Sequence record: MN850599.1
Direction: 5' to 3' (one strand)
Source: Escherichia phage lillemer
DNA length: 5,492 bases
Both the position numbers and the translations under genes were made by a program. The notes under the pieces were generated by a model that saw nothing but the letters and a program-made list of their open reading frames with translations, had not been told where the DNA came from and searched no databases. Below, piece after piece: positions 1,432 through 5,036 of the stretch. Numbering within the stretch: position 1 is the stretch's first letter; every line of letters begins with the position of its first letter.

Positions 1432-1688
1432 TTAGTATTTCCTTTGTTGTTACGGGTTGTTTGTGTGGGGGATAGTACCCCCCGTTCGATTAATATGTCA
1501 ACTAAAGATTGTTTGCCATGTACGAAATGTTCTTCGTAGCGGAACCAGTCCTTAAGAAGAGCGCCCAGCATGTTAAGCCATTTTTCCTCGTCAAGGGCAT
1601 CAGCCTTAGAGAGTATTGCGAGTTGATGGCGAAAGGTTGAGAAGTAAGACCCTCTCGAGCTCTTTAGTGCAAGATTGAATTTCTTCAT
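1428..1688 (-). CDS. C: Protein C (86 aa; switch from dsDNA replication to ssDNA synthesis/packaging)
   Basis: Track ORF 1428..1706 begins at a GTG; the ATG at 1688..1686 gives [58 protein letters not shown]..., closely matching recalled phiX174 C. The ATG overlaps the A stop (ATGA), as in phiX174. Confidence 0.88.
1472..1501 (-). promoter_or_regulatory. Candidate sigma70 promoter pD (TTGACA-N18-TACTAT) inside gene C, upstream of D
   Basis: Viral strand: TTGACA (plus 1501..1496), 18-nt spacer, TACTAT (plus 1477..1472), about 40 nt upstream of D ATG. Same hexamers and position as the phiX174 pD promoter as recalled. Confidence 0.6.
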
Positions 1689-1770
1689 TTTCCACCAGCA
1701 GTCCACTTCGATTTAATTCGTAAGCAAGCAGTAGTAATTCCTGCAGCAGCAAGGTAGTTTTTGGTTTCAT
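1606..1770 (-). CDS. K: Protein K (54 aa), overlapping the A/C junction in a third frame
   Basis: Hand translation from ATG 1770..1768: [54 protein letters not shown], stop TAA 1608..1606. ELLLL(V/A)YELNRSGLL and LSPSTN-like segments match recalled phiX174 K. ATG overlaps B stop (TGATG). Too short to appear in the ORF track. Confidence 0.7.
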
Positions 1771-2710
1771 CAGAAGTATCCATGAGTGTTAATTTCTGAG
1801 TCATTGAAGCGATAAAATTCTGCAGGTTGGACGCTCCGATTGTTCGGGTCAAATCGCGCATAAATTTTAGCAGATTGGTCGTTACAGGTTGCGCCGCCAA
1901 AACGGTCGCGACAGATGCTTTTGCCAGCCTCGATTTCAGCTCTTTCTTGGCGTTCTGCTTCAAGACGTTGTTGAACGGGGTCGAGTCGTAGCCCAGCTGG
2001 GTCAGTTGGATCAATGTTTCGGCGGTCAGGTGCGCCATTGATAACATCTTCATCCCGAAGTTGCGGGACATTCGGATTCTGAATAGTTTGGTTGGTAGTA
2101 GAGATATTTTGGTCTTGAGTGATGCGTTCCATTCTTTATTCCCTAGGCCTTTTGCGGCCATATCAATATCAGATTTTTTGTTAACGTATTTAGCGACGTA
2201 GAAGCCGACAGCCATATACGAGGTAGCTTTAAGGGGTTCACCCTTTGAGTCGACAGGCCAGAGCCAGCCAGCGCGCGAGAATGCGTCTTGGGAGTACCGG
2301 ACTGCGATGGGCATAGAATAGCCATAGGGCCATGTGTTTTGCAAGGAGTTTATTTGGCGATTAGTGCGTACCAGCTTACCGAAGTTAGGGTCACGAGAAC
2401 CCATAGGAAGTGTGCGCATAAGGTGCACTGCGTGGAAATGTAGACGACCGTGCTGTGTGCCATACTCTGGAACACAAAAATACTGATAGCAGTCGGCGTG
2501 TGAGTCATTAGCAGAGCGACCCTCGGCAGCAAGCACCATACGACCAATATCACGGAAGTAGTCACGAAGAGCATTGGGATTATCATAGAAAGCCTGTATG
2601 CGGTCATCGGCCAGAGTAAGAGTGTCGAATACAACATACCAGCCGTCAGTGTGGGCTTGGCGCATGGCATTCATCAGTCTTTGAACGGTAAAGCCACGGC
2701 GTGATTTCAT
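1685..2710 (-). CDS. A*: A* (in-frame internal initiation product of gene A, 341 aa)
   Basis: Internal ATG at 2710..2708 (A codon 204, MKSRRGF...) with GAGG about 9 nt upstream; same position and context as the phiX174 A* start as recalled. Expression not verifiable from sequence. Confidence 0.55.
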
Positions 2711-3319
2711 GGTGGATTCCTCAAGCATTTTTGAGCATTCATCCTTAATACCCTTCGCCTTTGCATAGTTGTAATCGGCGCGGATATCTTTAAGGGGTCG
2801 TTTAGATACGAGCTGTGACCAATGGGTGTTAACAGGTTTATCATAAAGCATACTCCAGTGGGCGTTACCTTTAGGGGTGTGGTCTATAGTGTTATTAATA
2901 TCAAGTTGTCCGAGCACGTCGTAACATTCTTGCAGTTCGTCAGCAATGGCGATGACTGTAAGGCGGTAATCCTCACCGATTTCATCAGAGAGGCGTAATT
3001 CGTTAGGGGCAGTTTGAGGGATTGGTTTACGGCGAATGATATCGTCCAGGGTAAATGTGTCAGGGTATTGAATGAGTTTTGGGTTGTGTCCTTTTTGATG
3101 GGCACGATAGGCAATAGTAGTAGCCAGTTGAGAATTTGGGTTCATGTAGAAGTCTTGAGTTTCAGGGCAGCGACGGATTCCGTTTGTCCAGTGAGCAAGA
3201 ATTTCTTCGAGTAATTTTACGCGAGTGTTTACCTGTTTCCAGATACGGAGGTTTGGGGATTGCGTGAGTGTCGACATGCCAGCGGCTTCGACGAGGGGTT
3301 TGATGAGTTCTACAGACAT
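1685..3319 (-). CDS. A: Replication initiation protein A (HUH rolling-circle endonuclease, 544 aa)
   Basis: Track ORF 1685..3319. HUH motif GRLHFHAVH (H294/H296) and catalytic tyrosine pair [10 protein letters not shown] (Y374/Y378, codons at plus 2198..2200 and 2186..2188). C-terminal two-thirds closely match recalled phiX174 gpA. ATG 3319..3317 with GGAGG SD. Contains the 30-nt origin. Confidence 0.95.
1770..2132 (-). CDS. B: Internal scaffolding protein B (120 aa), encoded inside gene A in a different frame
   Basis: Track ORF 1770..2132: ...PQLRDE..., EAERxxRxEIEAGKS, RFGGATC(N/D)DxSAxIYARFD, [12 protein letters not shown]-terminus match recalled phiX174 B. ATG 2132..2130. Stop TGA overlaps K ATG. 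Confidence 0.9.
2315..2344 (-). promoter_or_regulatory. Candidate promoter pB (TTGCAA-N18-TATTCT) inside gene A, upstream of B
   Basis: Viral strand: CTCC-TTGCAA-AACACATGGCCCTATGGC-TATTCT-ATGCCCATCGCAGT. Positionally equivalent to the recalled phiX174 region TTGCAAAATACGTGGCCTTATGGTTACAGTATGCCCATCGCAGT, about 190 nt upstream of B. Hexamers are weak; assignment is tentative. Confidence 0.35.
2879..2908 (-). other. Viral (+) strand origin of rolling-circle replication (30-nt gpA recognition/nick site) inside gene A
   Basis: Reverse complement of plus 2879..2908 is CAACTTGATATTAATAACACTATAGACCAC, identical to the conserved phiX174/G4 origin as recalled. Expected nick between G and A of CAACTTG/ATATT, i.e. 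between plus 2902 and 2901 on the '-' strand. Encodes [10 protein letters not shown] of protein A. Confidence 0.85.
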
Positions 3320-3324
3320 GTTAA

Positions 3325-3346
3325 AGCCTCCGTGTTAATGGAGGCT
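3325..3346 (-). terminator. H-A intergenic stem-loop (AGCCTCC / GGAGGCT, 8-nt loop) containing the gene A Shine-Dalgarno; T_H-like terminator / 5' mRNA hairpin
   Basis: Viral strand: AGCCTCC-ATTAACAC-GGAGGCT-TTAAC-ATG(A). 7-bp stem seen directly. phiX174 has an analogous hairpin (GCCTCCAAATCTTGGAGGC) immediately upstream of the A start (recalled). Confidence 0.6.
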
Positions 3347-3376
3347 ATTAGATAGGATTTATGATGTGATTGTCAA
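3347..3376 (-). promoter_or_regulatory. Candidate sigma70 promoter pA (TTGACA-N18-TCTAAT) between H and A
   Basis: Viral strand: TAG(H stop)C-TTGACA-ATCACATCATAAATCCTA-TCTAAT, immediately followed by the hairpin. Perfect -35 hexamer (plus 3376..3371), 5/6 match at -10 (plus 3352..3347). Same place as phiX174 pA (recalled). Confidence 0.5.
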
Positions 3377-3377
3377 G

Positions 3378-4415
3378 CTATTTGCGAGACATGTTGGAGC
3401 CTACTCCGTCGGCTTTACCATCTTTCCAATAATTGTTCCAAGTGTCAGACACAGCTTTATCAACGCCGCGAAAATAATCAACAATACCAGAAGATGCGTC
3501 ACTAATGACATTTGATACGTCCTTGGCGGTTTTACCGACCTGTGATGATGCATAACGTGAGTTTTGGACTTCCTGTTTTGAGCGGTCAGTTTCTACATGG
3601 GTGCGTTCAGTGTTAGCACGAACAGCATCAATATCAGCGCCGACTTTTCGAGTAAGTTCTTGGATTTGAGCGTTAGTAAAGTGTTGTCCTGAGGTTTGAG
3701 CCTGAGTAAGCATTTGGCGCATAATTTCAGAAGTTTGTTGTTGTTTGGTGAGGCTTGTGTTTTCGAGAATAGCGCCAACACGTGACATAGATTCCTTTTG
3801 GTTGTATTGGAGCATTTCGTTTTGAGCATATACAGAGTCCTTAGTATTCATGCGTGATGTGGCAGACTGGATACCAGCGATATCCTTTTGGGTGTCGTTT
3901 TGCATCTTAGCGATTTTGACTTGGTTGTCAAGTTGCATTTTGATTAGTTGTTTTTGGTTTTCAAAACCAGCGTCAACCATACCAGCAGAGGAAGCACCAG
4001 CGCCAGCGCGTTCCCACGGGTTGAGCTCGGGGAACGCAGAAGCAAGGTAATCTTTAGTATCCTTGCCTTTATCAGCAGCAGATTTGCCACCGAGGCCAAT
4101 TTTGTTAAGAAGAGCTTGTTGAACAGCAGAGCCGCCAGCTTGTAGAGTACCATCGAGAAGTCCTTTGCCAGCATCCTTAAGTGAGGAGACGGCAGATTCG
4201 GTAAATGTAGGAGCCGCCTGATCAGGGCTAGGCGGGTTAGGTCCCTGCATAACAGATTGAATACCTGCATTGTCAGCAGAGATAGTAGTTTCAGGGGTAG
4301 CGAAGAGGCCTTGTCCAGGAGTTGAAGGGGCGGCTTGTTTATTGCCGCCCATCAGTTTGGACATTAGACCGCCAGCAAGAGTAGAGGCGATGCCGCCAGC
4401 GATTGCACCAAACAT
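3378..4415 (-). CDS. H: DNA pilot / minor spike protein H (345 aa)
   Basis: Track ORF 3378..4415. N-terminus [19 protein letters not shown], central Gln-rich heptad region ([22 protein letters not shown]...[10 protein letters not shown]...) and C-terminus DTWNN(Y/F)WKDGKADG(V/I)GSN(M/L)SRK match recalled phiX174 H. ATG 4415..4413 with AAGGA SD spanning the G stop codon. Confidence 0.95.
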
Positions 4416-5000: not shown

Positions 5001-5036
5001 GACAGGGGGCGAAAAATTAAAATTTTTCCCCCTGTC
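5001..5036 (-). other. F-G intergenic long hairpin (9-bp GACAGGGGG/CCCCCTGTC stem plus inner A5/T5 stem); candidate complementary-strand origin / primosome assembly site or structural terminator
   Basis: Plus 5001..5036 gacagggggcgaaaaattaaaatttttccccctgtc is an imperfect inverted repeat. The phiX174 F-G spacer has an analogous AAAAATTTTAATTTTT-centred hairpin (recalled), and this spacer hosts the PriA site in phiX174 and the primase origin in G4. Not followed by a U-tract, so not a canonical intrinsic terminator. Confidence 0.55.

Follow-up and report, generated by a model that had tools for sequence, protein, structure and literature searches.

The region between genes H and A of Escherichia phage lillemer (MN850599.1) is probably an orthologue of the phiX174 pA–T_H element, in which RNA started at the gene A promoter escapes the hairpin and only RNA reading through from upstream folds it. 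The window, by which we mean the whole 5,492-nt stretch of DNA that was analyzed, is the reverse complement of a complete, rotated genome of a G4-like microvirus (Bullavirinae). It shares 98.1% identity with the genome of Escherichia phage Lilledu; Lilleto, Lilleput, MG1, and Lilleen are 96-98% identical to it, and ID2 and G4 about 80%. An element of the phiX174 pA–T_H type is not new in itself: knowledge of this regulatory layout at the H-A junction goes back to the sequencing of the phiX174 and G4 genomes (Sanger 1977; Godson 1978, comparing G4 with phiX174; both as cited for the H-A element by Logel & Jaschke 2020, 10.1101/2020.03.05.979765), and RNA-seq and deep mutagenesis have since measured it again.

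Anatomy of the H-A intergenic region

The element lies between genes H and A on the coding (viral-sense) strand and consists of the following features, which are given with the flanking genes.

3378-4415, minus strand: gene H (pilot/minor spike protein), a 345-aa ORF matching Pfam Microvir_H (E = 5.9e-140)
3380-3378, minus strand: H stop codon TAG, read from the sequence
3371-3376, minus strand: -35 hexamer TTGACA, read from the sequence, starting 1 nt past the H stop codon
3370-3353, minus strand: 18-nt spacer between the -35 and the -10, read from the sequence
3347-3352, minus strand: -10-like hexamer TCTAAT, a 5/6 match to TATAAT with C at position 2
3340-3346, minus strand: hairpin 5' arm AGCCTCC, from the inverted repeat and the fold; it would double as promoter discriminator/start region
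3332-3339, minus strand: hairpin loop ATTAACAC, 8 nt, from the inverted repeat and the fold
3325-3331, minus strand: hairpin 3' arm GGAGGCT, from the inverted repeat and the fold, with the Shine-Dalgarno (SD) sequence GGAGG of gene A at 3331-3327
3320-3325, minus strand: residual U-tract and spacer, TTT (3325-3323) and then AAC, a putative remnant of the terminator tail
3319-3317, minus strand: gene A ATG, read from the sequence
1685-3319, minus strand: gene A (replication initiation nickase), a 544-aa ORF matching Pfam Phage_GPA (E = 2.8e-60)

Homologues of gene H are annotated as CDS in Lilleto, MG1, and ID2, and the gpA of the window shares 71-88% identity with gpA of phiX174, G4, ID2, and PJNS002. 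Every base of TTGACA-N18-TCTAAT and of the AGCCTCC/GGAGGCT stem is as the original prediction had given it, but on the minus strand. All genes of the window are on that strand together with the promoter-hairpin motif, and a plus-strand reading of the motif was rejected for this reason.

TTGACA-N18-TCTAAT matches the consensus at 11 of 12 positions, with a spacing of the two hexamers within the 17 ± 1 nt expected of pA–T_H; for the pattern TTGACA-N16-18-TNTAAT the window has a single occurrence, where 0.01 would be expected. TCTAAT directly abuts AGCCTCC with 0 nt between them. The inverted repeat was recovered independently by an inverted-repeat search and forms a stem of 7 bp, 5 of them G-C pairs, closed by the 8-nt loop, a GC-rich stem-loop as in Rho-independent terminators. 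The RNA hairpin has a dG of -12.6 kcal/mol (z = -5.1; none of 200 shuffles was as stable) and ranks in the top 0.9% of the 33-nt local folds on the sense strand. GGAGGCT is followed by TTAAC and then by the gene A ATG. The SD had been placed 5 nt before the ATG, which is correct when measured from the end of the arm, but the last G of GGAGG is 7 nt from the ATG. A search of the whole window against Rfam matched 0 families.

The other strongest local hairpins of the sense strand are at 5002-5034, 863-895, 4322-4354, and 4005-4037 (all minus strand). There is an F-G intergenic hairpin, CAGGGGG...CCCCCTG, and two of the strongest hairpins lie inside gene H. A J-F intergenic hairpin, GTGGGACC-ACGG-TCCCAC, is T_J-like and was also listed as terminator-like by our scan.

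Counterparts in phiX174 and other Bullavirinae

In phiX174, pA–T_H is a promoter followed by a terminator stem-loop that holds the start site and the gene A ribosome-binding site (RBS) (Logel & Jaschke 2020, 10.1101/2020.03.05.979765); the start site inside the stem-loop is given in the legend to their Fig. S2. The original reading of the window sequence as a pA-like promoter is supported by homology, since the site shares with phiX174 pA its place just behind the H stop codon, its -35 hexamer, and its register. The two elements share the H-A position, TTGACA, a degenerate -10 set against a GCCTCC/GGAGGC stem, the SD GGAGG in the 3' arm, an ATG 5-8 nt past the stem, and, by register, a start inside the stem-loop. 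They differ in the spacer (18 nt in the window, 17 nt in phiX174) and in the loop (8 nt and 3 nt, respectively); the window -10 has no TG extension and the window stem is longer by an A-U pair. The window tail is UUUAAC and that of phiX174 U6, and terminator strength is probably lower in the window.

The phiX174 element causes a net 0.29-fold change in transcription from H to A, the largest drop among the four phiX174 terminators, and has been described as a 'reset' of the transcriptional current ahead of gene A. At -13.2, the hairpin score of T_H is also the best among these terminators. Transcripts from phiX174 pA are scarce, largely through instability. Deep mutagenesis of phiX174 found 17 of 27 mutations in the 3' stem/RBS detrimental, compared with 3 of 23 in the 5' stem (10.64898/2026.07.25.740675). 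Since 5'-stem mutations are mostly tolerated, pairing as such adds little to laboratory fitness.

The same layout was found in phiX174, G4/ID52, ID2, ID18, PJNS002, alpha3, WA13, St-1, and metagenomic relatives, and is thus common to all three Bullavirinae genera (phiX174-, G4-, and alpha3-like). In it, 15-18 nt separate the -35 from a -10-like hexamer; 0-2 nt further on comes the GC-rich stem, which carries the SD in the 3' arm, and a T-rich tail then leads to the ATG. The phiX174 element reads TTGACA-N17-TTTCAT-GCCTCCAA-ATC-TTGGAGGC-TTTTTT-ATG, that of G4 ...TAATAT-GCCTCC-N8-GGAGGC-TTTTC-ATG, that of ID2 TTGACA-N18-TATCAT-GCCTCC-N8-GGAGGC, and that of alpha3 TTGACA-N18-TATATT-GCCCTC...GAGGGC-TTTTTCGC-ATG. 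The -35 is TTGACA, TTGACT, TTGGCA, or TAGACA in all Bullavirinae compared. From the end of the -35 to the first base of the stem there are 24 nt in 12 of 15 distinct sequences; exceptions include phiX174 with 23 nt and ID18 with 21 nt (its close relative L097 has 24). Both the G4/ID2/ID18 and the alpha3/WA13/St-1 groups have the architecture and, ID18 itself apart, the 24-nt distance of the window. The G4 group also has the window type of hairpin, GCCTCC-N8-GGAGGC, whereas the alpha3 group has GCCCTC/GAGGGC with compensatory changes and a longer inner stem, placed at the end of a 750-nt intergenic region. The GC-rich hairpin with the gene A SD in its 3' arm is conserved.

We aligned 14 distinct sequences, and all six core stem pairs were 100% paired. 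Two of these pairs change on both sides between clades (U-A to C-G and C-G to U-A, in either direction), the inner stem of the alpha3 group has further swaps, and U-G wobbles occur on the sense strand in 3 sequences. Overall, 92% of the cells are paired, a figure that drops to 33-57% if the partners are shifted by 1-3 columns. Kept pairing and compensatory changes indicate that the stem is maintained as a sense-strand structure, on the basis of few independent compensatory events. The loop varies among relatives in length (3-13 nt) and sequence, and the stem is kept.

The terminator scan of the window (at least 5 T in 8 nt) did not list the H-A site, because the T-run after the stem is too short: the tail TTTAACAT has 4 T in 8 nt after GGAGGC and 3 in 8 after the extended stem. 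TTTAAC follows the stem in the window, Lilledu, MG1, Lilleen, Lilleput, and SECphi17; PJNS002 has TTTCTC, and most relatives have 5-7 T in the 8 nt past the stem. T-tail scores, calculated with a TransTermHP-style weighting, are about 1.9-2.6 for the window clade, the lowest in the family, and 3.3-4.7 for other clades. Unlike the window clade, the G4-type and alpha3-type relatives thus keep a better T-tract. The nearest outgroup, L040 (OBLN01002562.1, 5539 nt, 90% gpA identity), reads TCTAAT-G-GCCTCCA-N7-TGGAGGC-TTTTTC-ATG at about 2212-2300; as it keeps TTTTTC, the loss of the U-tract is specific to the Lilledu/MG1/SECphi17/window clade. With a UUUAAC tail, termination at the H-A hairpin is probably weaker in this clade. 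The suggestion that the hairpin might serve as a leaky terminator for read-through from H agrees with the known phiX174 T_H in kind, but less so in likely strength. Compared with canonical Rho-independent terminators of E. coli, the window hairpin has the GC-rich 6-7-bp stem directly followed by Us, but only 3 consecutive Us, and it overlaps a promoter and an RBS.

Several further sequences were noted during this comparison. The alpha3-like L026 (IMGVR_UViG_2974698941_000001, 6039 nt) has a natural deletion of about 30 nt at about 690-730 that removes the -10 hexamer and the hairpin 5' arm and leaves TTGACA...ACGAGGACTTTTTCGT-ATG. The linear GenBank records of Lilledu (L005) and Lilleto (L006) begin at the gene A ATG, which puts the element at the end of the record; these ends differ, with an extra A in Lilledu and ...GGAGGCTCTTTCGA in Lilleto, and the differences are likely assembly-end artefacts. 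Most of what the metagenome scan gave were phiX174 spike-in concatemers; new sequences that were informative numbered only about six. One 327,964-nt metagenome sequence, FUFK010037421.1 (L041-L110), contains dozens of tandem phiX174 genomes and is presumably a spike-in assembly artefact; it accounted for the bulk of the scan. In the distant microviruses L037-L039 (33-50% gpA identity) the region upstream of gene A is cut off or different. L039 (IMGVR_UViG_3300020043_006353, 33% gpA identity) has no SD hairpin of the Bullavirinae type upstream of its replication gene; its positions 1-160 hold three copies of TATCTGTTGGTyTTTT there. By sequence comparison, the pA–T_H architecture is documented only within Bullavirinae.

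Predicted start of the gene A transcript and folding of its leader

A consensus promoter scan of the window did not list the pA-like site, because TCTAAT has C in place of the key A at position 2. Unlike the phiX174 -10, the hexamer also has no TG extension, and because of both features the promoter is possibly very weak or its exact register different. The homologues at the same place are TATCAT in ID2, TATATT in alpha3, and TTTCAT in phiX174. In phiX174 the -35 (nt 3927-3932), the -10, and the TATG extension are all mutation-sensitive, and TTTCAT is likewise degenerate (10.64898/2026.07.25.740675). Within the pA–T_H reading, we regard the gene A promoter of the window with reasonable confidence as a putative weak sigma-70 promoter.

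Sigma-70 promoters usually have a 17-18-nt spacer and a 6-nt hexamer with the start about 7 nt further on, within a range of about 5-9 nt past the -10. Counting 30 nt on from the -35 hexamer of the window leads to C3341, position 6 of the 7 positions of the stem. From this geometry we infer that pA most likely starts at the end of the 5' arm or on the first loop base, from C3341 to A3339, and hence inside the stem-loop. Two alternative -10 registers, TATCTA with a 16-nt spacer and TAATAG with a 20-nt spacer, still give a start at 3344-3336; neither shifts it upstream of the 5' arm, and they were rejected as a route to such a start. Across the family, the 24-nt register combined with the usual sigma-70 geometry places the expected start at stem position 6-7. 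RNA that begins about 7 nt past the -10, inside or after the 5' arm, would be made without this arm, so that the hairpin could not form in it.

The GenBank record of phiX174 gives Promoter A as 3918-3961, a feature that ends at the GCCTCC arm and is followed by AAATCTTGGAGG. The in vitro start of phiX174 A mRNA, which we take to be pppAAAUCUUGG, is supported indirectly, through the end of the Promoter A feature at 3961 and the Fig. S2 legend mentioned above. A literature search for the original 5'-end sequence of phiX174 A mRNA (AAATCTTGGAGG / AAAUCUUGG), pre-2005 papers included, found nothing relevant in the collection searched.

For each possible 5' end of the RNA we calculated how much free energy it takes to open the SD-to-AUG region. 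This cost was 13-14 kcal/mol for RNA starting at or upstream of 3346, 12.4 kcal/mol at 3345, 8.3 kcal/mol at 3344, 6.4 kcal/mol at 3343, and 5.4 kcal/mol for 5' ends from 3342 downstream; the RBS is occluded (12-14 kcal/mol) only with a 5' end at or upstream of 3345, that is, 1-2 nt after the -10 hexamer. When 120 nt of H sequence from upstream are included, the hairpin remains dominant (11.5-15 kcal/mol). The same step is present in phiX174, where the cost is 13.6 kcal/mol compared with 3.3 kcal/mol at the annotated start, and also in G4, ID2, alpha3, and L023. Because occlusion requires the 5' arm, promoter geometry implies that the occluded RNA would be the RNA arriving from upstream and not that started at pA.

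These data bear directly on the original proposal that the hairpin sequesters the SD and keeps translation of gene A low. For the mRNA made from gene A's own promoter the proposal is unsupported, in view of the register, the folding, and the phiX174 start site; geometry and the phiX174 homologue both put the start downstream of the 5' arm or at its very end. Self-repression of gene A by the hairpin is unlikely, and occlusion of the SD is plausible in read-through transcripts only. SD-sequestering 5'-UTR attenuators and RNA thermometers have both arms of the hairpin in the mRNA of their own promoter; by its geometry the gene A mRNA would not, and the window hairpin does not belong with self-regulating attenuators of the 5' UTR.

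A perfect 7-nt complement of ACGGAGG (3333-3327) is present within gene A, CCTCCGT at 3245-3251 (minus strand; codons 24-26, N-L-R). In transcripts without the 5' arm it is the predicted partner of the SD once about 110 nt have been made. The heptamer occurs at the homologous codons in G4, ID52, ID18, and PJNS002 and with 6 of 7 positions in SECphi17, and is absent in ID2, phiX174, and alpha3. Long-range pairing between the SD and CCTCCGT is not significant on its own, as some complement of 7 nt or more would arise by chance in about 7.5% of cases, and we mention it only in passing. The conserved anti-SD heptamer (3251-3245) might additionally damp translation of pA transcripts.

Possible roles of the hairpin

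Three other explanations of the hairpin were weighed against the pA–T_H reading. That gene A mRNA starts at or before the 5' arm, and that a 5'-UTR hairpin keeps translation of the nickase constitutively low, we consider very unlikely. The hairpin is stable (-12.6 kcal/mol) and would cost 12-14 kcal/mol to open if transcription began at or upstream of 3345; levels of pA transcripts are low, and it is known that only small quantities of gpA are produced. Such a start would, however, follow the -10 by no more than 1-2 nt, closer than is usual for sigma-70, and would have to be reconciled with a 24-nt register between -35 and stem that is conserved across three genera. It would also disagree with phiX174, where the stem-loop holds the start and the GCCTCC arm is part of the annotated promoter, and where 5'-arm mutations, expected to de-repress A under this explanation, are mostly neutral (10.64898/2026.07.25.740675). 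A role of the inverted repeat as DNA, as a single-stranded hairpin or an RF cruciform for replication, packaging, or promoter function, is the least probable of all. The viral strand is of mRNA sense, its DNA fold reaches -6.6 kcal/mol (z = -4.4), and other intergenic hairpins are complementary-strand origins, as in the F-G region of phiX174 (10.64898/2026.07.25.740675), but the phiX174 literature consulted assigns the H-A hairpin no replication or packaging role. Moreover, the sense-strand U-G pairs are tolerated in RNA and would be destabilizing as G-T in DNA, or as A-C on the other strand, and the tight register of the hairpin relative to the -35 and the SD speaks for a function in transcription and translation.

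More weight, though still short of making it probable, must be given to the hairpin being a terminator/3'-end stabilizer of the late transcripts of H and nothing else, its overlap with the SD being a by-product of genome compaction; we consider this rather doubtful. T_H is an established intrinsic terminator in phiX174, with the largest drop and the best hairpin score of the four, and 5-7 T in the 8 nt past the stem are kept by most relatives. In the window clade, however, the U-tract has decayed to UUUAAC and the stem is perfectly kept, which suggests that canonical termination is not the only reason for keeping the stem, and occlusion of the RBS physically follows whenever the hairpin forms. 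This decay is the only hint that pairing has been selected beyond termination, be it for RBS occlusion or for 3'-end protection.

Under the pA–T_H reading, late transcripts from pB/pD-type promoters would run through D-J-F-G-H and meet the hairpin, gene H being the gene from which read-through RNA would enter the element. In RNA arriving through H the hairpin would be the leaky intrinsic terminator T_H and might also protect 3' ends, and in those molecules that read through, the folded hairpin would bury the gene A RBS. RNA initiated at pA, lacking the 5' arm, would be neither terminated nor translationally blocked. As a net effect, gene A would rely on its own weak promoter and be insulated from the abundant late transcripts. 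An arrangement of this kind has a functional analogue in IS10 and IS50, where transcription from the transposase promoter begins within a stem that covers the RBS with its 3' arm. In what the Kleckner and Reznikoff laboratories reportedly described in the 1980s as 'fold-back inhibition' of transposase mRNA, transcripts from outside fold and are poorly translated. The analogy is one of function only: sequence, host element, and protein are unrelated, and the IS structure is not also a terminator.

A sequence TTGACA-N18-TACTAT is found at 1472-1501 on the minus strand, inside gene C and just upstream of D. Its hexamers and spacing are the same as those of phiX174 pD, and this pD homologue (1501-1472) is a likely source of transcripts reading into the H-A hairpin. 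Two promoter-like matches were also seen inside H on the minus strand, at 3904-3931 and 3937-3964, with the sequences TTGACA-N16-TAAGAT (10/12) and TTGAAA-N16-CAAAAT (9/12). If these are active, their transcripts would hold the full hairpin.

It is possible, although we put this forward tentatively, that the hairpin is primarily a 'transcript-origin filter' and not a terminator, and that it bars read-through RNA from translating nickase A, a cis-acting and potentially toxic protein. If so, gene A output would be set solely by its own weak promoter, and translational insulation would be the role under selection in the Lilledu/MG1/SECphi17 clade. Having lost most of the U-tract but not the stem, the window clade offers a small natural test case for separating the terminator role of the hairpin from its RBS-occluding role. 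For the annotation and engineering of Bullavirinae, the conserved 24-nt register speaks for an escape of gene A's own mRNA from the hairpin, which should be treated as acting on read-through transcripts only.
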